DNA from: Squalus acanthias
Lineage: Eukaryota
DNA: 64,000 nucleotides
Assembly (NCBI GenBank): GCA_030390025.1
Contig: CM059431.1
Span: 123,878,001-123,942,000 of the forward strand
Direction of reading: 5' to 3'
Part shown: positions 2,386-51,554 of the stretch, piece by piece
Layout of the letters: every line of letters starts with the position of its first letter
Numbering within the stretch: the stretch's first letter is position 1
The notes under the pieces: generated by a model
The model's database searches: none
The model's input: the letters and a program-made list of their open reading frames with translations, nothing else
What the model was told of the DNA's origin: nothing
Position numbers and translations under genes: made by a program

Positions 2386-4893
2386 CTCCTTTCCCCCAGA
2401 TAAAACCCCTTAGTCCTCCAGACGTCTGGGACGGAATTTAACTCGACTTGAGCGCCGCGGGACAGGCATATTCGGGGTGTCACTGTTAGCCGCAGGAAAA
2501 CCTTCCTCCGTGGTTGATGACTCTATGACACCCTCTGTGGACGCGGCTTCCGTCGTTGTTGCAGGAAGCAGGCCGTCACTGCTTGGCAGAGGTGGCGGAG
2601 ACAATGGTCTAGCCTTTGATGTCTCAGTTACTCTCGCTGGAGTACGACCCCGTAGCTGGACTACGTGGCGTCTGTGTAGCTGGCCATCAGGTGTACGGAC
2701 GCTGTACGACAGGGGACCCGTGGCCTGCTCCACCACGGCAGGCATCCATTTGTCTCCTCCTGTATAGCAACGGGCAAACACAGTCTCTGACGGCTCGAAC
2801 TGCCTGGCGGTGCCCTGGTGCTTCTTAGCCAGCACCTCTTGTTTTGTGTGCATCTCGTCCTTGTAGTCCGGGTGTAGCCGGTCCAGTGCAGTCGCCAGCC
2901 GGCGACCCATCAGCATCTCAGCAGGACTCTTCCCCGTTGCTGAGTTTGGTGTGGTATGCTGTGATAACAGGAACCTGGCCAATCTGGTTTGCCAGTCCCC
3001 CACCGATATCCTCACCAGTGCCTCTTTTGTGGTTTGCACCATCCTCTCTGCCTGCCCATTAGAGGAGGGGTGATAGGGCGCTGTGGTCACGTGGCGGATC
3101 CCGTTTCTGCTTGCAAAAGCCTTGAACTCCGCTGACGTGAAGGCTGCTCCATTGTCTGAAACCAGCACGTCAGGGACCCCATGTGTGGCAAACAGCAAAC
3201 GCAACGTGTTGATCACTGCCCTGGATGTCATGGAGTTCATAATAGTCACCTCCAGCCATTTCGAATGCGAATCCACCACTATTAAAAAGACCTTCCCCTG
3301 AAAAGGCCCTGCAAAGTCAACGTGGAGTCTTGACCATTTACGAGTGGTCCACTCCCAGGGGTGAAGGGGAGCCTTGGGTGGGCTATGGCGGGTCAGCTGA
3401 CATGTCTCACAGCTCTTTACCACCTCCTCCACGTCTTGGTCCAACCCCGGCCACCAGACGTAGCTTCTCGCCAACGCCTTCATGTGCACAATCCCAGGGT
3501 GTGAGTCATGCAGCATTTTCAGCACCTCCTCTCTTGCGGCGGCAGGAACCACCACACGGCTTCCCCAGAGCACGCAGTTCCTGTGTGCAGACATTTCATG
3601 GCGCCTCTGAACGAAGGGCTTGAAACGCTCCTCCTGGACCTCGGAGGGCCAGCCGTGCAGCAGCCAGCGTAGCACCCGTGATAAGACTGGATCCTTCTGT
3701 GTGAGGCTGCCAATCCGCTGGGCATGGAGTGGGGCCTCCGGGACCTGCTCCAGCAGCAGCACCTCCAGGGGTGGTGGCGTCTCAGCCATCGGCCGGTTCA
3801 AAGGCAAGCGACTCAGAGCATCAGCATTAGCCAGCATCTTCCCAGGCCTGTAGCAAAGTTCATAACTGTAGGCCCCCAACATCAGACTCCACCGAAGCAT
3901 ACGCGGTGATATGATCAGGGGCATGGGCTTGGAGTGATGCAGGAGCCCCAAGAGTGGCTTGTGGTCCGTGTAGATGACGAACTGTCTCCCTAACAGGTAC
4001 TGGCTGAACTTCTTTACCCCAAATATGATGGCTAAGGCCTCCTTGTCAATCTGGGCGTAGTTACGTTCTGTTGTTGAGAGTGTTCTTGAGGCAAAACTGA
4101 TAGGCGCCTCCCGGCCATCTGGCTCTATGTGACCCAATAGAGCTCCCAGCCCGTATGGTGAGGCATCACACACCAACACCAATGGTTTGTTTTCATCATA
4201 GTGTGCCAGAACCTTATCTGCTTGTAGCAGTTCCTTTGCCTGTCTGTAGGCTGTTTCATGATCTGAGGTCCAGTTCCACACTGTTGCTTGGTCTAACAGC
4301 CTGTGCAGTGGCTCTAAGATTGTGGCTTTGCCCTTGAGAAAACAACTGTAGAAGTTTAACAGTCCGAGGAATGCCTGCAGTTCGGTCTTGTTCTTGGGGT
4401 TGGGAGCGCTCCTGATAGCCTCCACCTTCTCCGTAGTCGGATGCACACCGTCTTTGTCCACTCGGAATCCCAAGAACTCCACCCCATTGGCAGCGAACAC
4501 ACATTTCTCCTTCTGAAGGCGTAGTCCTACCTCAGCCAGCCGGCGTAGTACTTCCTGCAGCCGCTCATCATGGGCTTCCTGTGTCTTGCCTGTAATCAGT
4601 ATGTCATCCACGTAAGGCTGAACTCCCGGAACACCAGCCAACAGGGTGTCCATGAACCTCTGAAAGATTGCCACAGCCGTCGACACCCCAAACTGCAGCC
4701 TTGCGGCTCGGAAAAGTCCTCTGTGGGTGTTGATTGTCAATAGCTCGGCTGACTTTTCATCCAGGACCAGTTGCTGGTATGCTTGCTTGAGATCCAGCTT
4801 GGTGAACAGGGTGCCTCCAGCCAGTGTTGAAAACAGCTCTGTAACTGTTGGTAAGGGATACACATCTGGTAGCACAGCAGTATTAACCGTACA

Positions 4894-5068
4894 CGATAGC
4901 AAAATACTGCAGATGCTGGAAATCCGAAATAACAACAGAAAACGCTGGAAAAACTCAGCAGGCCAGGCAGCATCCGTGGAGAGAGAAAGAGAGTTGACGT
5001 TTCAGGTCGATGACCTTTCATCAGAACTGGGAAGAGCTGGAAATCAAATAGATTTAAGGCCAGGGTAT
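4894..5068 (-). mobile_element. Penelope-like pLTR fragment with minimal hammerhead motif
   Basis: Same sequence family as 13064, 23361 and 29110; 11-bp TSD ttaaccgtaca (4883-4893, 5069-5079). Confidence 0.85.
4991..5029 (-). ncRNA. Minimal type I hammerhead ribozyme motif (Penelope type)
   Basis: Minus strand reads cAGTT-CTGATGA-a-AGGTC-atc-GACCT-GAAAC-GTC-AACTc: intact core, 5-bp stem II, palindromic AC/GT stem III, GUC cleavage triplet. Confidence 0.8.
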
Positions 5069-6709
5069 TTAACCGTACATCTGTAATCTCCACAGATTCG
5101 CAGGCCCCCATCCTTCTTTGCAATGGGCACGATAGGGGTGGCCCAACGGGAGTTCTTCACTGGTATAAGAACCCCTTGGTTCACCAGCTTATCCAGGGCC
5201 TCATCCACCTTCTTGCGCAACGCAAAAGGAACTGGTCGCGCCTTGAAGAACTTAGGCGCTACCCCTGGGTCCACTTCGATTGAGACTGGCGGTCCCCGAC
5301 AGGCCCCGAGCTCACCAAAAACCTCTTCATAGTTCTCCAACATAGGCATTATGGGCTGTCGCTGTACCGTGTGTACTCCTGTCACTCCAATACCAAGGGG
5401 CGCAAACCAATCTCTGCCCAGCAGGCTTGTGCCCTGCCCCACCACCACATAAAGCGGAAGTGTGTCCTTGACTGCCCGATACTTAACTTTCACATGAATC
5501 ATACCCAGCACTTGGAGTTGGGCTTGGGACCACTGCCGTAGCACGCCACTGACCTGAGCCATCACCGGGGGTTCACTTGGCCACAGCCTATTGTAAGTCT
5601 CTTCACTTATCAACGAACACGCTGAGCCTGAATCCACCTCCATGCCGAGTGGTGCCCCATTCACGATCACATTTGCTGTGTATCCCCACCGTCTGTGGTG
5701 TCGCTGCTCAGCTTCCGTGGTATACACTGTATACTCATCGTTGTCCTCCCGTGTCAGGGTGTGTGTCTGCGATGCTTGTGTTGGCTCTGCTGCAGCAGCC
5801 TGAGCTTTCTTCATGCAGACACGAGCTATGTGTCCTCTTTTCTTACAGAAATGACATACCGCTGACACAAATTTGCATGTAGTGGCACCATGGAGAGCCC
5901 CACAGCGGAAACATTTTCTTCCTGTCTGTTTAGTTGCCTCCCTGTCACTCGCAGCATCAGCTGTGTGTGTGGTCTTGTGCACACCCTCGGCGGCCCGAGG
6001 TGGCGCTGCTTCTATACGTAGCATACCTGTGTTCATCGACGCAGCCTCTGCTGCTAAAGCCTTCTCCTCGGCCAGTCGGAACGTCAGGGCCTTGTCCGCT
6101 AACAGCTGTTTCTGCAATGCCGAGTCCAGCACTCCACACACAATCCGATCACGGAGCATATTATCTAAATGGTCACCAAAATTACAATGTACCGAGCGTT
6201 TCCTCAACTCAGCAATGTACCTTGAAATAGCTTGTCCAGGCTGTTGTTTACAATTGTGAAAATGGAAACGCTGCACAATTTCTGAGGGTTTTGGGTTGAA
6301 ATGTTGCTGCAGTATTTCTATCAAGTCCTTATAATCCACCTCACTAGGTTTACGAGGAACCACCAATGAACGCAGGACAGAGTAAGTAGCCGCTCCGCAT
6401 ACACTGAGCAACACTGAGCGCTTCTTCTCTTCTTTGTCAATATCATTGGCCTCCAAGAAACACCCCAGTCTTTCTGCGTATTCCTCCCATGAACTGTCCT
6501 CATCCCCAGAGAACTCTTCAATACGTCCCAAGGCCGTCATCGTGTTAATGTGCCCTGTCCCTTTAAGATCCACGTGGTCAGAGTTACAATAGCTAAACTC
6601 ACGTTAGTTGCCTGGATGTTATTAGCTGGGTGGCCCGCTCGTCGCAATATCCAATATCAGATTCGTAGGTTCGCGTCTATCTCCGTCCTTCTAGAGAGTC
6701 CGACAACCG

Positions 6710-29109: not shown

Positions 29110-30812
29110 AATACTGCGGGTGCTGGAAATCTGAAATAACAACAGAAAACACTGGAAAATCTCAGCAGGCCAGGCAGCATCCGTGGAGAGAGAAACAGAG
29201 TTAATGTTTCAGGTCGAAGACCTTTTGTCAGAACTGGAAAAAAGCAGGAAATGGAATAGATTTTACAGCAAGTTTAGGGGCTGGGAAAAGGGGGAGGGGA
29301 TGAAAGAACAAAAGGGAAGGTCAGTGATAGGATAGAAAGCAGGAGAGATTAAGAGACATTGAGAGATATTAAGAGATATTCAAGGCAAGAGGAGATGGCA
29401 ATGGGACAGGTTAAGGAACAAAGGATGGCTTGAGATGAAGTGTGAATTGCGCTGGCAGAATGAAGGACAGCTGCCATGTGGGAGGGAAGAAAAAAAGAGG
29501 CCAAACAAAAAGTGTGGAAAACTAAAAAAAAAAAATATATATATATATATATGTGATAGGGGCCGAGGTTATGATCTGAAATTGTTGAACTCTATGTTGA
29601 GTCCAGAGGGCTCTGGAGTGCCAAATCAAAAGATGAGGTGCTGTTCCTCGAGCTTACGCTGAGCTTCCATGGAACAATGCAAGAGGCCGAGGACGGTGAG
29701 GTCAGAGTGGGAGTGAAGCGGTGAATTGAAGTGACAGGCCACCGGGAGGTGTTCCGCAAATCGAGCACCCAATCTGCATTTGGTCTCCCCAGTGCAGAGG
29801 AGACCACATCGTGAGCAGCGAATACAGTATACTAAATTGCAAGAAGTACAAGTAAATCGCTGTTTCACCTGGAAGGGGTGTTTGGGGCCCTGGACAGTGG
29901 GAAGGGGGGAGGTATAAGGGCATGTGTTGCATCTCCTGCGCTTGCACGGGATGGTGCCGGGCGAAGGGGAAGGGGTGCTGGCGGTGGTAGAGGCGCGGAC
30001 TAGGGTGTCGCGGAGGGAGCGGTGAGGGGAAGATGCGTTTGGTGGTGGGATCGCGCTGGAGGTGGCGGAAATGGCGGAGGATGATCGTTGAATGTGGAGG
30101 CTGGTGGGGTGAAAGGTGAGGACAACGGGAACTCTATCGTGGTTCCGGGAGGGAGGGGCAGGGGTGAGGGCAGAAGTGCGGGAGATAGAACGGACACGGT
30201 TGAGGGCAATCCTCGAGTTGAGGAAAAAGGAAGACATGTTGGAAGCACTGGTATGGAAGGTGGCATCATCAGAGCAGATGCGGTGGAGATGGAGAAACTG
30301 GGAGAATGGAATAGAGTCCTTACAGGAAGCGGGGTGGGAGGAAGTGTAGTCCAGGTAGCTGTGGGAGTCAGGGGGCTTGTAGTGAATGTTTGTCAATAAC
30401 CTAACCCCAGAGATGGAGACGGAGAAGTCGAGGAAGGGAACGGAAGAGTCAGAGATGGACCATGTGAAGGTGAGGGAAGGGTGGAAATTGGAAGCAAAGT
30501 GAATGAAATTTTCTAGTACAGGGCGAGAGCAGGAGACGGCACCGATACAGTCATCAATGTACCGGAAAAAGAGGTGAGGGAGGGGACCCGAGTAGGACTG
30601 GAACAAAGAGTGTTCCACATATCCCACAAAAAGGCAGGCAAAGCTAGGACCCATGCGGGTACCCATAGCAACACCTTTGATTCGTAGGAAATGAGTGGAG
30701 TCAAAGGAGAAGTTGTTCAATGTGAGAACAAGTTCAGCCAGGCGGAGGAGGGTGGTGGTGGATGGGGACTGGTTGGGCCTCTGTTCAAGGAAGAAGTGGA
30801 GCGCCCTCAGGC
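29110..30812 (-). mobile_element. 5'-truncated Penelope-like retroelement
   Basis: RT GVAMGTRMGPSFA, FFRYIDD, PFLD and GIY-YIG domain VYCIRC..CGL...GET.CRL..RF.EH, followed by the pLTR shared with the short fragments. Confidence 0.92.
29590..30810 (-). pseudogene. Penelope RT / GIY-YIG endonuclease C-terminal portion
   Basis: ORF 29626-30720, with internal deletions and compensating frameshifts. Confidence 0.88.
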
Positions 30813-31531
30813 CATCCTAGGACGCTGAGGGAAGTGAAGGAAGAAATCGCGGAGGTACTGGCCATAATCTTCCAATCCTCCTTAGAAACGGGGGTGGTGC
30901 CAGAGGACTGGAGAATTGCAAATGTTACACCCATGTTCAAAAAAGGGTGTAAAAATAAACCCAGCAACTACAGGCCAGTCAGCTTAACCTTGGTAATGGG
31001 GAAGCTTTTAGAAACAATAATCAGGGACTAAATTAACAGTCACTTGTACAAGTGTGGAATAGTTAAGGAAAGTCAGCACGGATTTGTTAAAGTTAAATCG
31101 TGTTTAACCAACTTGATCGAGTTTTTTGATGAGGTAACAGAGAGGGTAATGTGGTTGACGTGGTGTACATGGATTTCCAAAAGGCATTCAGCAAAGTGCC
31201 ACATAATCGGCTTGCCAGCAAAGTTGAAGCCCATGGAATAAAAGGGACAGTGGCAGCATGGATACGAAATTGGCTAAGTGACAGAAAACAGAGAGTTGCG
31301 GTGAACGGTTGTTTTTCAGACTGGAGGAAGTTACACAGTGGTGTTCCCCAGGGGTTGGTACTAGGACCACTGCTTTTCTTGATATATATCAATGACTTGG
31401 ACTTGGATGAACAGGTCACAATTTCAAAATTTACAGATGGCACAAAACTTGAGAGTATAGTGAACAGTGAGGAGGATAATGATAGACTTCAAGAGATAAT
31501 AGACAGGTTGGTGGAATGGGCGAACACGTGG

Positions 31532-33181
31532 TGTAAGGTTTATAAAATTTGCAGATCCCCAACCTAAGGAAAAAGGACTTTGGAACTACCTCAGAGTGAT
31601 AAAAATGCATTTGGGTCTAACATAAGGAATTTAAGACCAAAAACCAAGTTTTGGCATTTTAAAACTATGTCTGGGCCTGTAAAGGGACAAGGAGGTGGGT
31701 TTGACCTCTGTAAAAGCAGTTTTGGTTATTGCAGTTAATTACACTGTCTGGGGAACCGGGATAACCCTACTCACGCCCCAGCACACATTAACATTTGAAC
31801 AATAGATCCTGGGAGAAGACAGTCCCACCCAAAATAACAAGCCCCATCAAACCGATTACAGGGCCCATCAGAAAACTTGCATAATCCAAATCACTCAGGA
31901 CCATTCTTTAGAAAAGACCGAGTCTGGCCTAGAAACCCAAAACATGAAACCAATCATCAGTGATCAGCCAAGGAGATCGACAGGATGCAAACCATCCCAA
32001 AACCATTTGACACTTACAGAGCAGTTACTGGTAACAGGCCCGCCAAAAATCAGACAATGAACTGAGCAGATTTGGCGGGTAGATAAGGCCATGTTCAATT
32101 GGTGAGATTGAAGGCCTGTTAAAAAACCAGTTAACGGGCTAGTAAGTCGTTACCGATTTGCGAGCCCGCCAAAAACCAGACAATGAACTGAGTAGATTTG
32201 GCGGGTAGATAAGGCCTCTTCAATTTAGTATAATTGAAGGCCCCTCAAGCAGTTCAAGGTCGAGCAGTCAGTCGCAACCGGTGGTCATCGGAAGAAGAAG
32301 AAACCAGGAAGAAGAAAACCCGAGCTGGAAGCAAGTCGGCATCGCTCACCACTCAGACACACCTGAGTCCAGCTCGCGAAGATACCACCTCGACGGACCT
32401 CCAACAACGGTCCCAACACAGTAACCCGGAGCAACAAACCAAGAAGACATCGACGGCTCCCCAAGGTCGACTGACACATTAAACAAAGCCTAAAGCCATC
32501 GCGGAAACCAAAGGCCTCACGAAACCAACAACCGCGCATTACCCCCAACTGACCGGGTAATAGCAGGCCACCACGACCACCAACTCCAAGGAAGAAAACC
32601 TGAAGAACTGCAAAGTTTCCACACTACAAACTACTCCTGACTTACCCCTGGGTAAGATTTTCCCCAATGATTCTAAACACTACTGCTAAACCAAAGAAAT
32701 TGGGTACTCACCAGATAAATCCATAATGACATCCTACCGCATCAGTGGACTCGTGAAGACTGATCAGAGACACAGGTGAAGTCCTCTACCACGTACGGGG
32801 TACGGCAGACACTAACCGCCATAAACAGCGAACCCCAAAACCGCGATTTAGCCCAAATGTCAAAGGATTGGTGAGCATTATCCCTGGTCCTTCAAAACCC
32901 AACTTAGCTAGTAAAGTGGGGTTGGGAGGGGTGAAGTATTGTTCTACTGTCATTTCCCTCGCTTGTACCGAAGTGTTCCCCACCTTTAGAGTGTTAAGAG
33001 TGTTGTTATTTGTGTCTTACCTTTTAATAAAGATTGAAGTTCTTTCATCAAGCTCAGTTGTCTGCTGCACCTTTTTATCACAACCCCCAAATAAGTCCAA
33101 GGTCTAGAACCAAGGGAGTGGGAGTGATTCGAACCACTCAGAAGTCAGAGGTAAAGCTGACACAAACCACCACCCCCTACA
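31532..33181 (+). repeat. Outer provirus 5' LTR (1650 bp)
   Basis: Direct repeat of 49904-51554; about 17 mismatches in the first ~270 bp by eye; AATAAA at ~33025. Confidence 0.95.
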
Positions 33182-39214: not shown

Positions 39215-39837
39215 CTTGGCCGTCCAGAGACGGGCGGTGAATATACAGAGTTTTAATGTATTTTAGGTGTTTTACAGTTTGGTAGTTTTTAGGATTTGAA
39301 GGATTCTAGTTTTAAGGTTTTTAGCAAGTAAGTTCGAAGATCTTAAGAATCGATCACCTGTCCAGCCAAAGAACCTTCTCGGGACATGGCTGTCTGTTTT
39401 GTGTGTCCCTACAGAGAGGAAATCAGCATGACAAGGGTTCTGCTCCTGCTCGCCCTGGTAGGGGTGAGCATCAGTGACCGAGGTGACGTGGAGGACTCCC
39501 ACATCTATGGGTGCTCGGGAGAGAGAGCACCGGTCGTCACCGCAGGGGGTGGCGAGCGGGGAGTGGAGGAGCTCGCCATCTACTTCCACGAGGGAAGGTG
39601 GCCAGGGTGGCTGGGGTCCAACTCCACAAGATACTCCAGCCAGACCGGGCTCACGTACAGGGAGGCCTCCCTCCCATGCCCCAGAGTACAGGTCTTTGTC
39701 ACAAGGGTCAGTGTCACCAAGGGGAAGCGTGTGTGCCTTACCTGTAAGGGACAAATTCCCCATAATAGGTGGTGGTGGCTCAGGAAGCTGAGCAGGGACG
39801 CAGGGGACCATACAGCCGACTGGGAAAGATTAGGGAA

Positions 39838-40353
39838 TGAAGTAAGATATTAAAAATTGGATATAACCAGGGCAATTCGGGCATGACTCATTTGCAGAAA
39901 GCCAGGCCTTTAACGAGATTTGTTTCAAGTCACACAACACCTTACAAGCTTTCGGAGTCTACCTCCTTCAACGAGATTTACAGATAGCATTGTATGTAAC
40001 TTTTACAGCCACCCTCGGATAACGAGATCCCCATAAGGCGAGACAGAAATGTTTGCTAACCAAGTAACTTTTAAACCTAATTGGATCTCTGTAAAGGCAA
40101 GACAGAAATATTTGTAAAACGAGTAATGTGTTTTTAGACCTAGCATTGTGTGTAACTTTTAAACCTGATTGGATATAAATATGTGTGTTTTCATTAGCTC
40201 GGTGGAGTTGTACTCATGTAAGCGACATGAGAGGTTCTCCCCAGGCCTGTAATAAACCGTTGTGACTTCAATTACTTGGTCAGTCTTTCTTCCAACAAGC
40301 CAGTAGCGTCGACCTTGTATATCACTGGGTCCGCACTTTGGGAGCTTACATCA
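39838..40353 (+). repeat. Inner provirus 5' LTR
   Basis: Termini TGAAGTAAG...CTTACATCA; TATAAAT 40174; AATAAA 40251. Confidence 0.97.
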
Positions 40354-40355
40354 AT

Positions 40356-40373
40356 TGGCGACGAGGATGGGAT
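40356..40373 (+). promoter_or_regulatory. Primer-binding site, tRNA-Ser(GCT)
   Basis: TGGCGACGAGGATGGGAT is the 18-nt complement of the ATCCCATCCTCGTCG-CCA 3' end. Confidence 0.88.
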
Positions 40374-40604
40374 GCGCGATCTGAACAAAACTCTCGGACA
40401 GCGATAACCTAAGACGGGTGAGTACGTTTAAATTACCACCTGTAAAATTAGAGGTTAATCGCTGGCGAGACGTTAAGTAAGATTGACGTACAAAAGAACT
40501 ATAAAAAGAAAGACACCTTTAATTGAAGGCGGTTAACACTGCCGGACTGCGGTACCGGAAAACAAGGGTTTAGAAACCTGATAGGCCCACGAGGTGCGGC
40601 TCTT

Positions 40605-41040
40605 AAGTAGTAGTTAAAACGGGGAGTTTTAACACGGTGGAGGACGAGTCCTTCTGGCCGAAAAGTAAACTTAGGTAGTAGTTAAAACGGGGAGTTTTAA
40701 CACGGTGGAGGACGAGTCCTTCTGGCCGAAAAGTAAACTTAGGTAGTAGTTAAAACGGGGAGTTTTAACACGGTGGAGGACGAGTCCTTCTGGCCGAAAA
40801 GTAAACTTAAGTAGGAGTTAAAACGGGGAGTTTTAACACGGTGGAGGACGAGTCCTTCTGGCCGAAAAGTAAACTTAAGTAGGAGTTAAAACGGGGAGTT
40901 TTAACACGGTGGAGGACGAGTCCTTCTGGCCGAAAAGTAAACTTAAGTAGTAGTTAAAACGGGGAGTTTTAACACGGTGGAGGGCGAGTCCTTCTGGCCG
41001 AAAAGTAAACTTAGGTAGTAGTTAAAACGGGGAGTTTTTA
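40605..41040 (+). repeat. 68-bp tandem repeat (6 full units plus a partial seventh) in the provirus leader
   Basis: Units start at 40605, 40673, 40741, 40809, 40877, 40945 and 41013; a diverged extra copy lies at ~41093-41155. Confidence 0.97.
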
Positions 41041-41181
41041 AAATAAACAAACAAGGGTTTAGAAACCCGGTAGGCCCACGAGGTGCGGCTCTTAAGAAGT
41101 AGTTAAACAGGTTGTTTTAACACTGGGTGAAGGACAAGTCCTTCTGGCCGAAAAAGAAATAAATAAATAAATAAATAAACT

Positions 41182-42730
41182 ATGGCTAGCAAAGAGGATA
41201 AGGAACCCTGGGGAGACCCAGAGTCTGTAACACGATATGTTTACGACAAGAATAAAAAATTAATTGAGAAAATGAGAAAGGCAGGGTGGAACCAGGACGA
41301 TAAACCAGACACACAAAGGGACTGGTGGAGGAAACAAACCAAAAATAAATTGGAGAAAGCGTGCATTATCGTAGCGGCACGATACGATCGGGAACGTATG
41401 CTCCAGCGCGGAGCCCTTAAAACATATCCAGCAGCTGCAGCCAACCCAAAACCGGGTAACTCCCAGGAAAGGTTATACCTGGAGCTGCCCCAGGGGGGGC
41501 CGACTGGCTGTCCTCCCCCATATACAGGACACCAGTCGGCAGCCCCGGAGCCTGTTCCGATGGCACCAGTGACACTGCAATATAGGCCAGCAATCCCCGC
41601 GGTTCCGGAAATTCCGGCGGCAGGGGGGAATCCGGCCGTCCCGGCAGTACCGGGCAGGCCGGCCACCACAACGTTGACCTACACACCGTTAAGCCTGCAG
41701 GATCGGGTGATTCTCCTCAATGAATTACCAGCCTTAAAACACCGCCAGAATAATCAGACATTCTGGCACAAACTGCGCGAAGTACGCATAAACCATGCCC
41801 TACATAGTATAGATATCGATCAATTGGTACGAGCTAAATGTCCCGAGGAACAGTGGAGATTAGTGCAGGGCAACCACGGAAATGGCCAGTGGGCCACAAA
41901 TACAGGACAGACAATCCAACAATTAAACACTGAGTTCGACCAATTCAAGGCCGCTGTGGAAGCAGCAATGGGACAGGCCCCCGTAAATTGGGCAGCTATA
42001 AGCGGAATCACACAAAAAAAAGGGAGAAAGCGCTATCGATTATGGAAAACGAAAGTGGTCCGCCTTTGAGGGTAACTGTGGGATCCCAGGCCCCTTAAAC
42101 AAAAACAACGCTTGTTTTCTGCAAACATTTAAACAGGGACTAAGTCCAATGCACCAGAATGCAATAAAAATGGGGCTAGTGGTCCACCATAATTGGGAGG
42201 ACTTAATACAGTGGGCGTGCGAAGTAGATAATCAGGTCCAAGAACAAGCCAAACCTAAAATAGCTGCCCTAAGGACGGATAGCGACAATGAGGATGCATT
42301 AAGTGTGGCGGCATGCTTCGGTTGCGGACAGGAGGGCCACATGAAAAGGGATTGCCCGAGGCAACAGAACAAAGGGGATAATCAGACATCTCAGCAAAAG
42401 GCTTCCTGTCATAATTGTGGAAAACCAGGGCATAGGAAACAACAATGTTGGAATAAAGGAGGAGGAAGGGAAGGTCAGGGACCTAGACAGGGAGGAAAAC
42501 CGGGGTCAAGTATTGGAAGGTCAGAGAATAACGAGGAAAGCATGGCGAAACTGATCAGGAAGGGAATGCAAGACTGGGAGGATGACAGAGAAAGAGAAGA
42601 AAGGAAGAGGAGAAAGAGTAGGAAGTATAAGAGAGATGATTCCTCAGACACCTCCGACGAGGAAGACATAGTGGAGCTGACAAGGAAAATGGAAAAACTG
42701 GTCAAACAGATAAAAAAAGGCAACGCCTGA
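41182..42730 (+). CDS. gag: Inner gag with a single +1 lesion in an A8 run at 42014-42021
   Basis: PPPY late domain; removing one A restores MHR QKKGESAIDYGKRKW; two CCHC knuckles CFGCGQEGHMKRDC and CHNCGKPGHRKQQC. Confidence 0.88.
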
Positions 42731-45700
42731 AAGGTAGCGGCCCTCGGAGACCCGGTAAAGGGAGACCCTAGAATGTTTATTGAGGCACTGGTAGGGGGCC
42801 GACAGTGCAGAATGCTCATAGACACCGGGGCAGCAATATCTCTAACAAACGTACCCTTGCCGCGAACCAAGGAAAATATTTTTATATCTGGGATAGGGGG
42901 AGTAAAAATTAAAGCATGGAAAAGTGAGACAGTATTACTAGAATTGGGAAAAATCATTATACCTACATGTTTCTGGATCTGTGAGAATACTGAGGGAACC
43001 ATCCTGGGTATAGACATACTAAGGGAAGTGGGAGTTTTAATAGACCCCAAACAGGATAAGTTGCTATGGCCCGATAACCACAAGGAAGGGAGACATAACT
43101 CAAAGGGATCCAAGACAGCATGTGCCATCAGCGCTATCCAAATAATAGACCCCAAATGGGACGAAAAGGGAGGGTGGGGGGCAATTTGCCACCGATTCCC
43201 CGAACTATGGGCCAAACACAAGCAGGACTGCGGACTGGTTAAGATGAACCCAGTCAGAGTCCCCGGGCCAACCCACCGACCCCATAAACAATATCCCCTA
43301 AAAGTGGAGGCCCAGACAGCCGTACGGAGTATAGTATTGGAACTCGTGAAACAGGGAATTCTGCGAGAAACAGTGTCCGGCACTAACTCTCCAGTATGGC
43401 CCGTAAAGAAACCTGATGCGTCATATCGACTTACAATCGATTACACAGCCTTAAATAAAGTGACCCCAAAGGAATATCCAATTGTAGCAAGCCCAGCTAC
43501 TATCTTTAACGGTTTAAAACCAGAACACAAAATATTCACCGTGTTAGACATCGCAAACGGGTTCTGGTCCATTCCCCTGCATGAGGAATCACAGGAAAAG
43601 TTCGCCTTTACAATAGGCGGCAAACAGTATACATGGACACGGGTCCCACAAGGATTCCATAACAGTCCAGCCATTTTTCACCGCCACATGGCCAGAGCTC
43701 TTGAAGACCTAGACTTAGAGGGTGAAAATAGTACCCTCTTACAATACGTGGATGACCTCCTAATAGCGTCAGAAATGAAAGTGGGACATAAGGGGGCCCT
43801 GGTAAAGGTCTTTTCAACCCTACGGGAGGCGGGTTTTAAAGCAAACCCAGCCAAAGCCCAGGTAGGAAAATTGGAAGTCACATACCTCGGGTATAGGGTC
43901 AGTATGGGAAAAAGGGCTATGCCAGAGGAAAGGAAGGAGGCAATCAGCCAAATGCCAAGGCCCATAAACGTGAGAGGAGTACGACAGGTACTCGGTCTCT
44001 TTAACTTTAGCCGGAACTTTATAGAAGGCTTCTCACACATGGCCGCGCCTCTGTATGAATTAACAAAGGGGGGTAGGGCAGCAGGAGAACCCATCGGGTG
44101 GACATCCACTCAGGAAGAAGCATTTACCAAACTTAAACAAGCCCTGACCGCCGCCCCCGCGTTAGGATTACCTGATCAAGAGAGACCCTATCACATATTC
44201 TGTCACAATCATGATGGACACTATAGCGCCGTAGTAGCCCAGGAGCACGGAGGAAACATGAGATCGGTGGCCTACTATTCCACTAGACGATCCCCCATCG
44301 TGGCAGGTATGCCCCGCTGCGTGGCCGCTATAGACTGTGCCAGATGGTCAGTACAGGTCAGTGAACCGATTATAATGACCGGAGATATTGTACTACACAC
44401 CCAGCACACCCTGGTAGAATTACTTAATACGGGACGACTGAAGTCTGTCTCAAATGCTCGACGAGCAGCCTGGGAGGCGGTACTATTACCCAAAGACAAG
44501 TCAATACAGATAGTCAGGGATATGGGGCAGAACCCAGCCTCCATGATGATCATGGAAGGAGAGGACCACCAATGCATGAATGAGGAAGAGCCAGAAAATG
44601 ACCTAGACAAAATAAAAGAAATACCCTTGGCCGAAGCGGACTTGGAGTTATATGTAGATGGATCCCGAAAATATGTACAGGGAAAGCCGAGGACAGGCTG
44701 GGCGGTGGTAAATGGGGAAGGGATGGTGTTACAAGCCGGAACTCTCCCAGGGGATAAATCTGCCCAGGTCGCAGAACTAACAGCCTTAACGGAAGCCCTG
44801 AAACTGGCTATGGGAAAAAGGGTTAATGTATATACCGACAGCCGCTACGCCTTCGGAATAGTACATGATTATATGGCCGCATGGAGTAGGAGGGGGTACA
44901 TCACCTCTGGGGGAGCCCCCATCCAACACCTGGACGTAGTAAAGTCCTTGGTGAATGCCGCGCGCGGACCAACGGAGTTAGCAGTAATAAAGGTTAAAGC
45001 GCACACCAAAGGAAAAACTCCACAAGAACAAGGTAACAGAGCGGCAGACCTGGCCGCCAAGGTTATGACGGAGGCGCCCTGTGGCAATGTAACACCGATA
45101 GGGGGAGCCCCAGTCCCATTAATACCCCTTGAGTATAATATTGTTAAGTTACATCAAGGCATACCAGAACCTGAGCTGAACATTTGGGAAAAGAAGGGAG
45201 TAATGCTATCCAGAGATAAGGTCTGGAGGAAGGAGGGACGGGTCTGTGCACCGGAGTGTATCCAACAGGAACTAATGAGGTTGTATCACGGACAAGCCCA
45301 TACAGGGGCCAGCCGAATGATAAATAACATAGGCCAATGCTGGTGGTGGCCCGGACTATCAAGCAGTATAAGGAAGTATTGTAAGGATTGCCACATTTGT
45401 GCGCAATGTAACACCGGAAAACCAGTAAAGGTAAAATGGGGTAGACAGCCAAGACCCAAGGGACCCTGGGAGAAACTACAAATAGACTTTACAGGACCAT
45501 TAACCAAAAGCAAAGGAAAAACCTACTGTCTGGTAATAATTGACCAATTCACAAGGTGGGTGGAAGCTTTTGCCACCCGAAACTGTACCGCCAGTACAGT
45601 GGCCCGGATCTTGGCAGAAGAAATAATACCCCGGTGGGGAGTCCCATTACAAATAGATTCAGATAAGGGAACACACTTTACCGGAAAGGTAATGAAAGAG

Positions 45701-46294
45701 GCTTGCGCCCTGTTGGGCGTAAAGCAGAAATTTCATATACCTTACCATCCCGAAAGTTCAGGAATGGTGGAACGAATGAATCGGACCTTAAAACGATCTC
45801 TCACAAAGGCCATTGTGGAGACGGGGCAGGGATGGGCGGAACTGTTACCCACAATCCTAATGAGACTAAGGGCCACACCAAATAGCACCACCGGACTGAC
45901 CCCTTTTGAATTAATGACGGGACGGGCAATGGCGCTTCCCGAAGGAGTAGTGACCGGAGGGGAAGATGTGGGACCTTTAAAGGACAGAATCAGAAGGTTC
46001 ATAAAGCAATTATGTGCGGAACTGCACGGGCTGAGACAGGAGGCTAGAGACCAGCAGATAATCAAGGATCTGGAGAGGGATACCGAGGAACAAAAGAAAG
46101 TCATACCTGGGGTGGGAAGTCAGGTAATGTCTAGAATAATTCCAATAAAACCTGGGTTACGGCCCCGGTGGGAAGGACCCTATTTGGTATTAATGACCAG
46201 CGACACTTGTGCATGCATAGACCTGCACGGCACTGGAAAGGGAAGATGGAAACACTGGACACAATTAAAATTATACAAAGAAGCTGATGAATAA
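42731..46294 (+). CDS. pol: Inner pro-pol (PR-RT-tether-RNase H-IN), uninterrupted and in frame with gag
   Basis: 1173-aa ORF: LIDTGA, LDIANGFWSIPL, PQGFHNSP, YVDD, LYVDGS/AELTAL/YTDSRY, HHCC, D-D-E, WEGPY. Confidence 0.97.
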   Translation, partial: KVAALGDPVKGDPRMFIEALVGGRQCRMLIDTGAAISLTNVPLPRTKENIFISGIGGVKIKAWKSETVLLELGKIIIPTCFWICENTEGTILGIDILREVGVLIDPKQDKLLWPDNHKEGRHNSKGSKTACAISAIQIIDPKWDEKGGWGAICHRFPELWAKHKQDCGLVKMNPVRVPGPTHRPHKQYPLKVEAQTAVRSIVLELVKQGILRETVSGTNSPVWPVKKPDASYRLTIDYTALNKVTPKEYPIVASPATIFNGLKPEHKIFTVLDIANGFWSIPLHEESQEKFAFTIGGKQYTWTRVPQGFHNSPAIFHRHMARALEDLDLEGENSTLLQYVDDLLIASEMKVGHKGALVKVFSTLREAGFKANPAKAQVGKLEVTYLGYRVSMGKRAMPEERKEAISQMPRPINVRGVRQVLGLFNFSRNFIEGFSHMAAPLYELTKGGRAAGEPIGWTSTQEEAFTKLKQALTAAPALGLPDQERPYHIFCHNHDGHYSAVVAQEHGGNMRSVAYYSTRRSPIVAGMPRCVAAIDCARWSVQVSEPIIMTGDIVLHTQHTLVELLNTGRLKSVSNARRAAWEAVLLPKDKSIQIVRDMGQNPASMMIMEGEDHQCMNEEEPENDLDKIKEIPLAEADLELYVDGSRKYVQGKPRTGWAVVNGEGMVLQAGTLPGDKSAQVAELTALTEALKLAMGKRVNVYTDSRYAFGIVHDYMAAWSRRGYITSGGAPIQHLDVVKSLVNAARGPTELAVIKVKAHTKGKTPQEQGNRAADLAAKVMTEAPCGNVTPIGGAPVPLIPLEYNIVKLHQGIPEPELNIWEKKGVMLSRDKVWRKEGRVCAPECIQQELMRLYHGQAHTGASRMINNIGQCWWWPGLSSSIRKYCKDCHICAQCNTGKPVKVKWGRQPRPKGPWEKLQIDFTGPLTKSKGKTYCLVIIDQFTRWVEAFATRNCTASTVARILAEEIIPRWGVPLQIDSDKGTHFTGKVMKEACALLGVKQKFHIPYHPESSGMVERMNRTLKRSLTKAIVETGQGWAELLPTILMRLRATPNSTTGLTPFELMTGRAMALPEGVVTGGEDVGPLKDRIRRFIKQLCAELHGLRQEARDQQIIKDLERDTEEQKKVIPGVGSQVMSRIIPIKPGLRPRWEGPYLVLMTSDTCACIDLHGTGKGRWKHWTQLKLYKEADE

Positions 46295-47159
46295 CCCAGA
46301 AATCATATTGTACAAGGAAAGCAAGGATTATTTGCATAGGGTCCAAAGGGACAGGACATCCTTGTATTCGCGTTAATATGATCCTGTTGCATTATGATAG
46401 TAACATTCTTCGTGGTCTGTATGTTTCAATAGATCTGGGAGACTGGCAAAGTAGTAAGAATGGAATAACTAACTGCTGGTGACGACCAGCCTTGTATTTC
46501 CACAGGACAAATTAGAAGAACGACGGAAGAAGGGACGGCTGACAAAAAGGAAGATAATCAAGTATCTGCTTATATATGGCCTATATAACACCGGAAATGA
46601 TATTTTGGTGATTGGGGGTCAGGATGGTCGGGGACGTTGGGCGCCTCAGTGGTGCAAAGCATAATGATATTCCTCGTGATTGTTATTACAATATACTGTG
46701 TATTCTTGCTGCTCAAAGATTAGGTAAAGCCATGATGGTGTAAGACCCGATCTATAGCCCTAAAATTACAAGGGATGAATTGGACATGGTAATTAATAAC
46801 CAGGCCGGCCAACCGTAAGACGGGAGTGGCAGAAACAGGATTGGTGAGTGATGACAGTCTCGAAAGGACACGTCACGCACCCACCGAGGGAATGGAGGAC
46901 GAGCTCGAACCAGAAGCCCAAACCATTGATGCAGGGCTCTTGGGCCCCGGGGATGGCAACATAGAACCAAGACAAGAAAATAATAAGTCCACATATACCG
47001 CGTGGGGTGAAACCGGCTTATAAATTGGTTTATGTCATACCCATGTATAACCTAGACTGGTAGAAGGCCAGAGAGTGCACGCTCAGGCAGACACCAGGCA
47101 ATAGGAATACATGTTGACCTGTATTGGAACAGTTGTCCAATAGGTCAAAAGGGGGGAAT

Positions 47160-47675
47160 TGAAGTAAGATATTAAAAATTGGATATAACCAGGGCAATTC
47201 GGGCATGACTCATTTGCAGAAAGCCAGGCCTTTAACGAGATTTGTTTCAAGTCACACAACACCTTACAAGCTTTCGGAGTCTACCTCCTTCAACGAGATT
47301 TACAGATAGCATTGTATGTAACTTTTACAGCCACCCTCGGATAACGAGATCCCCATAAGGCGAGACAGAAATGTTTGCTAACCAAGTAACTTTTAAACCT
47401 AATTGGATCTCTGTAAAGGCAAGACAGAAATATTTGTAAAACGAGTAATGTGTTTTTAGACCTAGCATTGTGTGTAACTTTTAAACCTGATTGGATATAA
47501 ATATGTGTGTTTTCATTAGCTCGGTGGAGTTGTACTCATGTAAGCGACATGAGAGGTTCTCCCCAGGCCTGTAATAAACCGTTGTGACTTCAATTACTTG
47601 GTCAGTCTTTCTTCCAACAAGCCAGTAGCGTCGACCTTGTATATCACTGGGTCCGCACTTTGGGAGCTTACATCA
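47160..47675 (+). repeat. Inner provirus 3' LTR
   Basis: Identical by eye to 39838-40353; preceded by the PPT. Confidence 0.97.
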
Positions 47676-49903
47676 GGGAACGACACCTACCAGACAATCA
47701 CAGGGACCCAAGGGGGAGTGAGTGTGTGTTGGGGTAAGTGGTGGGAACCGGAACAGGGAGTCTATGTCTGTATGTGGGGATCAGAGAAAGCCTGCCCCAC
47801 AGGCATATCCATCATCTTCTCCATACAATGGCAAGATGCCGGGGAGGGGATGGGGTGGGATTCTAGCCTACATGCGTGCGCGCTCCCACACTCCCCGACC
47901 CCAGTCAACGCCCCCGAACTAGTAGCCCGCCCCCGAAAGCCCCTGCCCACGACCACGACCTCACGGACAGTAGAAGAGAGGTGTCCTACCACCACCAAGG
48001 GACCAGAAAATGGACTAGTACTAGTACCGACCGAAAAGGTACTCTACCAGGGGGTACACTATGCAGTAGCTTCAGTAATATTAAACCTTACCGAGGTACA
48101 CTTATCTAAATGGTGTCCTAAGGAGACAAAACAGCTATACCAGGCCCTGTTAAAGGAAATGTTTAGAAAATTCTATGAATTCGACTTTAACAACGTGGAC
48201 AAAGCAGAACTGTACAGATTACACCCAGAGCGCACCATGGGCACAGGGAGACAAAGAAGGGGGACCTGGAACGATATTTTCACAACCTATAATGCAGGAT
48301 CCTCAGTAATAAATAGCCAAGATGACATAGAGCTACAAACACAGATAAATGGTCTAAAAACCCAGTTGAGGAAGATCCTAATGGACGGGAACACAGTGGT
48401 AGGCTCAGAGCTACACGAGGACCAAGCTATGACGGTCCATCTAAAAGAGATTATTGCTGAGCTAGAGAGACATGCAAAAACAGTGAATGCACTCATACGA
48501 GAGGACAGGAGTAATTCGGATCAGGCTGCACAGAATGAGGTGTGTGTGCTATACGGGGCATGGTTGCTGGGCGAGGGCCGCAGCAACCTGGAGGATTTAA
48601 AACAAGGTTTAGTCCCCTCCTGGATTAGCAAAAAACACCTCGCAGCCCTCCACCCGTTCAGCAATTCACTGAGCCCGTGTCAGCTCCACCTAGCCTCTGA
48701 AGCCTACCCAGTCCCAGTAGATTGTGGACGTTCCAATCACTCTATCATGGGGATAGTAGTGAGGATGCCAGTCATGGGTGGGACAGCCCGACCCGCACCG
48801 GTATACAGGGTGGAGAACATTGGGATCATTCAAGGGGGTGCACACGTCCATTTCGCAGAGGTCCCACCTTATGTCATAAAGTGGGAGCACGCTATGACAG
48901 GTACTGACAGGTGCCGGAGCCGGGGTTCACACATAATACTGTGTCCCCAGCACTTGTACGCCTACTCCAGATCACAGTGCGGGTTTAAAGCTGCTGGCGC
49001 ACGACCCATCAACTGTACCATGGAGGTAATGGCACAAGGCCATGTTCCCCCACAGGTAGCATTCATAGGGGGTGGGACATATTGTGTCACCACAAGTGCG
49101 CCCCACTACCAGCATGGACAACATTTTTGGTGTCCGGTAAGTGACAGCAGTTTCTGCTTTAAACCCAAGGCAGAAGTTCAAGTGGCCTAGGAATGGATTG
49201 TCCCCATTCCTGAACCCTCAACTGTTCACCTCACTGTAAGGGAAAACATTACCAACCTGCAAAACGATGTCACCTTCTTTGGCTATAAGATTCCTCCTCT
49301 GCCTGAACACCTTACCGTCTTACTAAAAGCTGTGCAGCTTTCACCAAAGCATTTCTACACCCTAGAGCAAAAGACACTCGAGATAGGGGCTGAGATTTCG
49401 GCCATCACGGTTCCAACCTGGTGGGACATTTTTGAAAATATAGAGGTTCCTTCCTGGATTAGGATGGCCTCCCACATCTTAGTGGTTTGCCAGCTCGGGA
49501 TAGTCTTGTACTTACTGTGTACAAAGTGCAAGGGGAAGGACAGAATGCTCCATTCCCGGCCTGAGAAAGCCTGGGAAAAACATTACAATAATGTTTACCA
49601 AGTGTAAAACAAGCCTGAATCGATTCTAAAAATAAAGAAGTTTTGTGATTGTGTGTTATTTACTTTCCATGTATGTATTTTGTTTTTTTCCAAGTGGTGC
49701 AGGGGTGTTGGATCCCTCCGTGCTTGGATGTATATGTATTATTGATTCTTACCTGTATGTATTGGAACACTACACTAAAAAAAGGGGAATGTATGTTTTT
49801 GGGTTTTAGTTCAGGTAATACAGGGGAAGGTTGGCTTTCGAGGATCAGGGATTTTGTCCACCCAGGATGATACTGTAGTGACTTAAAGTATCGCAGGAGG
49901 GAC

Positions 49904-51554
49904 TGGAAGGTTTCCAAAATTTGCAGCACCCCAACCTAAGGAAAAAGGACTTTGGAACTACCTCAGAGTGATAAAATTGCATTTGGGCCTAACCTAAGGA
50001 ATATAAGACCAAAAACCAAATTTTGGCATTTTAAAACTATATCTGGGCCTGTAAAGGGACAAGGAGGTGGGTTCGACCACTGTAAAAGCAGTTTTGGTTA
50101 TTGCAGTTAATTGCACTGTCTGGGGAACCGGGATGACCCTACTCAAGCCCCAGCAGACATTAACATTTGAACAATAGACCCTGGGAGAAGACAGTCCCAC
50201 CCAAAGACAGGCCCCATCAAAACCCGATTACAGGGCCCATCAGAAACATACATATTAAAACCCACTCAGGACCATTCTATAGAAAGACCGAGTCCGGCCT
50301 AGAAACCCAAAACACGAAACCAATCACCAGTGATCAGCCAAGGAGATCGACAGGATGCAAACCATCCCAAAACCCATTTGACACTTACAGAGCAGTTACT
50401 GGTAACAGGCCCGCCAAAATTCAGACAATGAACTGAACAGATTTGGCGGGTAGATGAGGCCATGTTCAATGGGTGAGATTGAAGGCCTGTTAAAAACCCA
50501 GTTAACGCGCTAGTAAGTCGTTACCGATTTACGAGCCCGCCAAAAACCAGACAATGAACTGAGTAGATTTGGCGGGTAGATAAGGCCACTTCAATTTAGT
50601 ATAATTGAAGGCCCATCAATCAGTTCAAGGCAGTTAGTCGCAACTGGTGGTCATCAGAAGAAGAAGAAACCAGGAAGAAGAAAACCCGAGCTGGAAGCGA
50701 GTCGGCATCGCTCACCACTCAGACACACCTGAGTCCAGCTCGTGAAGATACCACCTCGACGGACCTCCAACAACGGTCCCAACAAAGTCACCCGGAGCAA
50801 CAAACCAAGAAGACATCGACGGCTCCACAAGGTCGACCGACACATTAAACAAGGCCTAAAGCCATCGTGGAAACCAAAGGCCTCACGAAACCAACAACCA
50901 CGCATTACCCCCAACTGACCGGGTAATAGCAGGCCACCGCGACCAACAAAGACCAACTCCAGGGAAGAAAACCCGAAGAACTGGAAAGTTTCCACACTAC
51001 AAACTACTCCTGACTTACCCCTGGGTAAGATTTTCCCTAAAGACTCTAAGCCCTACTGCTCAACTAAAGAAATTGGGTACTCACCAGATAAATCCAAAAC
51101 AACATCCTACCGCATCAGCGGACTCGCGAAGACTGACCAGAGACTCAGGTGAAGTCCTCTACCGCGTATGGGGTACGGCAGACACTAACCGCCATAAACA
51201 GCGAACCCCAAAACCGCGATTTAGCCCAACTGTTAAAGGATTGGTGAGCATTATCCCTGGTCCTTCAAAACCTAACTTAGCTAGTAAAGTGGGGTTGGGA
51301 GGGGTGAAGTATTGTTCTACTGTCATTTCCCTCGCTTGTACTGAAGTGTTCCCCACCTTTAGAGTGTTAAGAGTGTTATTATTTGTGTCTTACCTTTTAA
51401 TAAAGATTGAAGTTCTTTCATCAAACTCAGTTGTCTGCTGCACCTTTTTATCACAACCCCCAAATAAGTCCAAGGTCTAGAACCAAGGAAGTGGGAGCGA
51501 TTCGAACCGCTCAAAAGTCAAAGGTAAAGCTGACACAAACCACCACCCCCTACA
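49904..51554 (+). repeat. Outer provirus 3' LTR (1651 bp)
   Basis: Preceded by purine tract aggaggga; ends ccccctaca followed by TSD gtgg. Confidence 0.95.

Follow-up and report, generated by a model that had tools for sequence, protein, structure and literature searches.

Yang and Temin are said to have described, in 1994, a double-hairpin encapsidation signal in spleen necrosis virus, formed by two adjacent hairpins in the leader. That double hairpin is present as a single copy, and direct repeats occur in the leaders of ZFERV and SSSV. The dimer-linkage/core encapsidation signal of Moloney murine leukemia virus (MLV; SL-A to SL-D) lies in the pre-gag leader and contains several palindromic hairpins, of which those of 10 and 16 nt convert into extended duplexes that expose UCUG to nucleocapsid (PMC5874298 and PMC13736810, in extract). 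HIV-1 RNAs engineered to carry two dimer signals self-dimerize and are packaged as one copy (PMC3605237 and PMC516451, in extract). In the extracts consulted, packaging or dimer signals of fish or shark retroviruses are nowhere described, and the term "epsilon" gave no hits in those of two reviews. The literature searched, primary reports on ZFERV, SSSV, and the cane-toad endogenous retrovirus (ERV) aside, describes no ERV of a fish or amphibian with a tandem array in its leader, and leader arrays are not mentioned in the extracts of PMC8278194, PMC5210030, PMC4422223, and PMC4977317.

Here we consider a provirus of the shark Squalus acanthias that carries a 68-nt two-hairpin unit in tandem within its leader (Table 1). 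It lies in the 64,000-nt stretch of DNA that we analyzed, referred to as the window.

Table 1. Features of the young provirus and its leader, in window positions
Feature	Position	Strand	Basis
Young ERV, ~7.8 kb	39838-47675	+	LTRs, target-site duplication, ORFs
Target-site duplication GGGAA, 5 bp	39833-39837, matched at 47676-47680	+	repeat comparison
5' LTR, 516 nt, AATAAA at 40251	39838-40353	+	repeat comparison
Primer-binding site (PBS)	40356-40373	+	sequence
Splice-donor-like CGG/GTGAGT, GT at 40418-40419	40415-40423	+	consensus match
Single-copy short palindromes/hairpins upstream of array	40516-40559	+	folding/self-duplex scan
Block A, 5' portion of the older duplication, with two small hairpins predicted	40561-40601	+	sequence comparison, folding
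Six 68-nt units plus 29-nt head	starts 40602, 40670, 40738, 40806, 40874, 40942; head 41010-41038	+	TRF, unit alignment
Hairpin 1 of unit 1, predicted 8-bp AU-rich stem, 5-nt purine loop, local in all folds	40613-40633	+	predicted fold
Hairpin 2 of unit 1, predicted 4-bp + 6-bp stem	40635-40660	+	predicted fold
Block B, repeat of block A with 39 of 41 positions identical	41050-41090	+	sequence comparison
Diverged unit, 8 substitutions and 2 indels versus unit 1	41091-41159	+	sequence comparison
gag, two overlapping frames, 41182-42069 and 42002-42730	41182-42730	+	ORFs, profile match
pro-pol, 1187-aa open frame encoding protease, RT, RNase H, and integrase	42731-46294	+	ORF, domains
Decayed env, open for at most 76 codons, plus polypurine tract	46295-47159	+	ORF scan
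3' LTR	47160-47675	+	repeat comparison

Judged by its sequence, the provirus is very young, and its two LTRs differ at no position over 516 nt. The PBS is one that we take to be of the tRNA-Ser type. The initial annotation placed the array in a retroviral leader, a claim confirmed by the LTRs, the pro-pol frame, and the position of the element in a reverse transcriptase (RT) tree; it also named a splice donor at 40418, which holds as a match to the donor consensus, but use of the donor is only predicted. No ATG occurs between 40373 and 41181, and the array is bounded upstream by the donor-like site and downstream by the start codon of gag. The gag frame is broken at an A-run near 42014-42021, and the zinc knuckles fall in its second part (42002-42730), where two CCHC-type knuckles are visible in the translation, Pfam scored one stretch, and a long charged tail follows. 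The gag gene ends in a TGA (42728-42733, context UGAAAG) in frame with pro; an in-frame UGA between gag and pro is a likeness to SSSV, ZFERV, and the cane-toad ERV, all absent from our RT tree, for which UGA gag-pol readthrough is listed (PMC13517186, in extract). Short direct repeats of 15, 23, 29, and 33 nt in U3 (39907-40174) are enhancer-like. The young provirus sits within an env-like region (frames 39347-39853 and 47553-49190, without a Pfam match) of an older provirus at 31532-51554, whose LTRs (31532-33181 and 49904-51554) are 94.9% alike and whose gag and pol are broken. Elsewhere in the window, the minus strand holds, at 2410-6603, a Gypsy-type element whose pol frame and gag-like frame (the latter with a PNMA hit) are open and, at 29626-30816, a 396-codon open frame without a Pfam match.

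The tandem array spans 40602-41038 with a period of 68, 6.4 copies, 98% matches, and a TRF score of 832, and is the sole long-period array among eight TRF rows in the window. The six units, a count that is that of the assembly sequence, vary at positions 5, 10, and 43 only, and the closing 0.4 unit holds just the head of hairpin 1. On the plus strand the hairpin-1 motif has six exact copies and one partial copy (0.00 expected by chance), and the hairpin-2 motif has five exact copies, one with one change (unit 6), and one with two changes (41129), against a chance expectation of 0.45 at up to three mismatches; TRF and motif counts thus agree with the 6.4 near-identical units first reported. The initial annotation also noted a duplicated 45-bp block. 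The duplication stands, but its length before the unit start is 41 nt, and it is one event with the diverged unit: since block A runs directly into the unit and block B into the diverged unit, they belong to a single older duplication of ~110 nt (40561-40669 and 41050-41159). From the sequence, the array arose later, when the 3' 68 nt of the first of these copies were expanded, and the 98% likeness of the units indicates that the expansion was recent. The diverged unit retains the pseudo-palindrome of hairpin 2 (41129-41144) and its UCUG (41143). An A-rich spacer before block B (41041-41057) is 82% like the A-rich run before the gag ATG (41169-41185), with several AATAAA motifs.

A single unit has a minimum free energy fold that forms both hairpins, at -18.5 kcal/mol (z -2.16; 5 of 200 shuffles were equally good); in the 40610 phase, z is -1.64, and the diverged copy, with a z of -0.82, does not reach significance. 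Folding is more stable on the plus strand than on the minus strand (-18.5 versus -11.4 kcal/mol). We set aside the z of -9.2 for the whole leader as evidence because it reflects repetition. A property absent from the initial annotation is that hairpin 2 is, in these models, a pseudo-palindrome that prefers an extended duplex. Its core in unit 1 (40639-40654) is a 16-nt pseudo-palindrome with a 2-nt center, and at 40653-40656 there is a UCUG, the UG of which is predicted to bulge; with 7-nt arms around so short a center, the innermost pair is possible only with a second copy. The predicted extended duplex has 22 pairs, of which 7 + 7 form the core on either side of a tandem GA or AA mismatch, and the self-duplex is predicted at -32.0 kcal/mol, 12.0 better than two separate hairpins, compared with a gain of 2.2 for hairpin 1. 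Hairpin 2 is the strongest self-duplexing 26-mer of the leader, followed by its diverged copy and then by a 26-mer at 40541, within the upstream single-copy palindromes; the unit and diverged hairpins are predicted to cross-pair at -30.8 kcal/mol. Across the element, ~0.1% of 7,073 windows self-duplex as strongly, four windows elsewhere equal or exceed it, and 6% have a dimer gain equal to or above that of hairpin 2, and none of 47 gag-pol 26-mers (overlapping windows) of similar hairpin energy gains at least 12 kcal/mol.

When the whole leader is folded, hairpin 2 pairs between units with a probability of 0.88 to 0.99, and hairpin 1 stays local. Inter-unit pairing is predicted to stabilize two units by 9.5 kcal/mol and six units by 39 kcal/mol; the six-unit fold runs from -110 kcal/mol (local) to -150 (with inter-unit pairs). 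If long pairs are barred, local hairpins form at 0.99, but at 0.32 in unit 6; kinetics may favor such local hairpins over inter-unit duplexes.

Substitutions were counted by hand (n = 13: eight between unit and diverged unit, three within the array, and two between blocks A and B), and the structure against which they were scored was derived from the very sequences compared. All 13 preserve pairing, 10 being unpaired and 3 being one-sided wobble changes, and no two-sided compensatory change occurs among them. In post hoc tests, a chance of 0.57 to 0.70 per change gives P values of 0.0007 to 0.01 for this tally, but both of the indels fall in stems, and inclusion of these (13 of 15) gives 0.02 to 0.13; unit versus diverged copy alone gives 0.13 to 0.34 in the null model, within chance. 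The diverged copy had been thought to keep both stems, and its substitutions are indeed compatible with pairing, but indels affect both: hairpin 1 has lost 1 nt from its 5' arm, and hairpin 2 has gained 2 nt at its base. The stem-preserving covariation proposed for this pair is weak, given the want of a two-sided change and the P values above. The structure is compatible with the variation without being proved by it. A further leader variant, at 41109 in one contig of sequencing run X19 and outside the 13 counted, is wobble compatible.

The leader resembles that of MLV in its pre-gag position, in its several palindromic hairpins, and in a 16-nt self-complementary hairpin with a predicted extended duplex and UCUG on its 3' side (PMC5874298 and PMC13736810, in extract). 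In contrast to MLV, the shark leader lacks the GACG tetraloop pair, its loops being GGGGA and CGAG (the GACG letters that occur in the unit lie partly in a stem and partly in a loop, and the diverged copy has lost them), and it lacks UCUG-UR-UCUG; its duplex is predicted to expose no new UCUG, with the same bulge in monomer and duplex; its module is present seven times; and the element falls outside the mammalian gamma clade. Without GACG loops or a predicted UCUG switch, the unit as modeled is not an MLV-type signal by membership. UCUG is a common 4-mer, with 17 in 5,113 nt of gag-pol; there is one per unit and one in the diverged copy. The likeness to engineered HIV-1 is that more than one self-complementary dimer element per RNA permits intramolecular pairing (Sakuragi 2001, as given in PMC516451; PMC3605237; both in extract), whereas the HIV-1 repeats reach ~1 kb, are far apart, and carry a proven DIS, and those of the shark leader are natural, 68 nt long, and adjacent, with a predicted dimer role.

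The best solved-structure relative of Pol is MLV RT. In an RT tree of 43 rows, which left out WDSV, ZFERV, and SSSV, the provirus groups with Mustelus and Heterodontus ERVs and two unnamed proteins (support, 99/98), so its closest named relatives are shark ERVs; this group lies within a 15-row clade whose named rows are fish and apart from five mammalian gamma-like rows, and the host element is not in the mammalian gammaretrovirus group of that tree. Scans of viral contigs yielded a single relative (L001), at 33%, with a short leader lacking an array. A metagenome scan yielded six loci, two of them (L002 and L003; Pol identity, 39%) with leaders. These have a similar donor-like motif directly after the PBS, and by eye they show no array and no likeness to the unit; the hairpin-2 pattern had no matches in the metagenome contigs. 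The middle of the leader changes fast between L002 and L003, and it is enclosed in both by a long-range stem from post-donor to pre-gag (588-612 with 953-977 in L002; 97-117 with 507-527 in L003), at least one pair of which, by eye, has apparently changed on both sides. No clear stem of this kind encloses the array in the shark leader. Rfam gave no match, the two hits (E values of 2.9 and 7) being below the gathering score and outside the six units.

The element was found in 20 sequencing runs from 8 studies and 5 organism labels, with at least half of the words in 19 of the 20; one of these runs may be the source sample. Contigs from four runs (X1, X13, X19, and X20; three organism labels) were compared with 40942-41540, which holds 1.4 units and which no contig among those listed spans in full. 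Depth, summed over the listed contigs so that overlaps inflate it and it is not a copy number, was for the full unit versus gag 54 to 58 versus 13 to 15 in X1, 2,940 to 4,735 versus 442 to 1,362 in X13 (of which ~55% was analyzed), 15 to 30 versus 3 to 25 in X19, and 18 to 36 versus 0 to 6 in X20. The rise of the unit above downstream sequence is clear in X1, X13, and X20 and uneven in X19. Single X1 contigs had depths of 32.7 (unit body) and 13.2 (exit and gag), and the X1 depths hint at an average unit number above one and below six. Two X20 contigs (records 29 and 30) and one X1 contig (record 2) run from unit tail through the head, beyond which 6, 6, and 1 letters, respectively, depart from the exit path; these are likely to be tandem unit-to-unit junctions. 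In X19 the displayed loose end at the head continues as a full unit, as do all three listed contigs that cross from block to unit head with a displayed loose end (two in X1 and one in X13). The diverged copy is covered unchanged in X19 record 19 and X20 record 31. At 41356-41539 there is a second gag subfamily, ~87-89% alike, in X1 and X19, with variants shared by X13, and at 41480 all four runs differ from the window letter at full depth, a private change or an assembly error.

With middling confidence, and on the strength of predicted structures, we read the array as an amplified, probably copy-variable dimerization/packaging module of a young shark-type ERV family. Hairpin 2 resembles the MLV dimer elements and is accompanied by UCUG with a bulged UG and by purine-rich linkers, which is why we read the unit as belonging to a dimer/packaging region; a packaging or dimerization role had already been proposed for it, and the proposal is plausible and strengthened by the predicted self-duplex of hairpin 2. 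We infer the function, origin, and copy-number variation of the unit as follows. The 68-nt unit would be one module within the packaging/dimer-linkage region. Its hairpin 2 would act, in unspliced RNA, like the pseudo-palindromic SL-A/SL-B hairpins of MLV, opening so that two copies join in an extended duplex, and this duplex would offer the bulged UG within UCUG, together with the purine-rich linkers, to the zinc knuckles of Gag, while hairpin 1 would remain folded as a spacer or a second Gag site. The older duplication would have given two copies, and template switching in reverse transcription, or unequal crossover, would then have expanded the 68 nt of the first copy in tandem. Unit number probably differs among family members, and extra units would give redundant dimer contacts and Gag sites. 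Against this reading, the leaders of relatives L002 and L003 are free of arrays, and the single-copy palindromes upstream of the array could, from their predicted pairing, be an alternative dimer-initiation site. Direct repeats of 61 to 110 nt are deleted at 5 to 47% per cycle (PMC3187697, in extract), so the persistence of the array across the family hints at retention.

Even without selection, an unstable array would survive in a family that had spread through few rounds of replication. Few rounds explain the persistence equally well, and for this reason a neutral or near-neutral minisatellite, although unlikely in our judgment, keeps a substantial claim. Under this alternative, hairpins pause reverse transcriptase and template switches duplicate and expand the leader segment, leaving extra units, and perhaps the hairpins themselves, without a specific role. 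Stem-loops do raise template switching (PMC3187697, in extract), the units are so alike as to indicate recent expansion, single-unit folds reach z values of only -1.6 to -2.2, structure retention loses significance once indels are counted, and the leader middle turns over fast between L002 and L003; in addition, blocks A and B differ at 2 of 41 positions, and unit and diverged unit differ by 10 changes in 68. Such neutrality fits less well with the preservation of pairing by every substitution, with the fact that hairpin 2, in each of the two old copies, outranks the rest of the leader in predicted self-duplexing, and, weakly, with the raised unit depth in four runs, which is not a copy number, where template switching mostly deletes repeats.

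By analogy with the engineered HIV-1 RNAs, the array might be a selected natural multiplication of a dimer-initiation hairpin, such that one RNA would pass the dimer checkpoint by pairing with itself, or would form multivalent networks; we regard this stronger form of the dimerization reading as improbable. We think it similarly doubtful that the array is an RNA control element, strengthened by multimerization, that acts in export of unspliced RNA, suppression of splicing, or a translation/packaging switch (an IRES or a scanning block). The array is suitably placed, beyond the donor-like site and shortly before gag, the stability of the six-unit fold should obstruct scanning, and Rous sarcoma virus (RSV) exports its RNA via direct repeats; but the export elements named in the extract of PMC12789967 lie in env or the 3' region, in pol, or around src, not in the leader, and our search produced no Rfam match beyond two chance hits and no feature specific to such control.

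A DNA-level enhancer or insulator array of repeated transcription factor sites in the provirus is more remote still. The unit length fits the 50- to 75-bp class of LTR enhancer repeats, which are unstable and variable in copy number (PMC3187697, in extract), and the unit contains an 8-bp inverted repeat. Such repeats act as DNA within U3, however, whereas the array lies 250 nt past an LTR whose U3 has repeats of its own, and it is predicted to be structured as RNA, with the better fold on the plus strand and three stem substitutions that are wobble compatible as RNA only. The earlier speculation about Pol III small-RNA cassettes or tRNA mimics has very little left to recommend it: an A-box pattern matches at 40611, 40655, and their repeats, but that pattern occurs at 1.1 per kb, the first A-box-like site is lost in units 4 and 5, no B-box lies within one mismatch in the leader (two-mismatch matches run at 17 per kb), TTTT occupies unit positions 26 to 29 between the supposed boxes, and ARAGORN found 0 genes and Rfam no match. 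It is scarcely credible that the assembler made the tandem copies. The comparison drew on contigs only, over a stretch with 1.4 units, but the units bear a patterned set of three variants, the two X20 contigs and the X1 contig pass the head with letters unfit for the exit, and in each of the four runs unit depth exceeds that of the sequence downstream. Two further candidates were rejected: a coding unit, given stop codons in all three frames of the 68 nt, and a secondary PBS or tRNA decoy, suggested by a 6-mer that the unit shares with the PBS, since the best pairing reaches -12.7 kcal/mol and 8.7% of windows equal it.

A neutral array would be no more than an unstable leader repeat of the ordinary sort. 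If the self-dimer possibility were true, the env-decayed element might enter particles as a single genome, or win Gag in competition with helper RNAs, and the array would be a tunable packaging-drive repeat in an ERV that is becoming an intracellular retrotransposon. Read as a dimerization/packaging module, the repeated unit offers a short candidate packaging/dimer signal for fish and shark retroviruses. A natural series of unit numbers would show whether extra dimer hairpins help, hurt, or do nothing; they might hurt, in that self-dimers cut the supply of recombination partners. Such a comparison bears on why retroviruses package two genomes.
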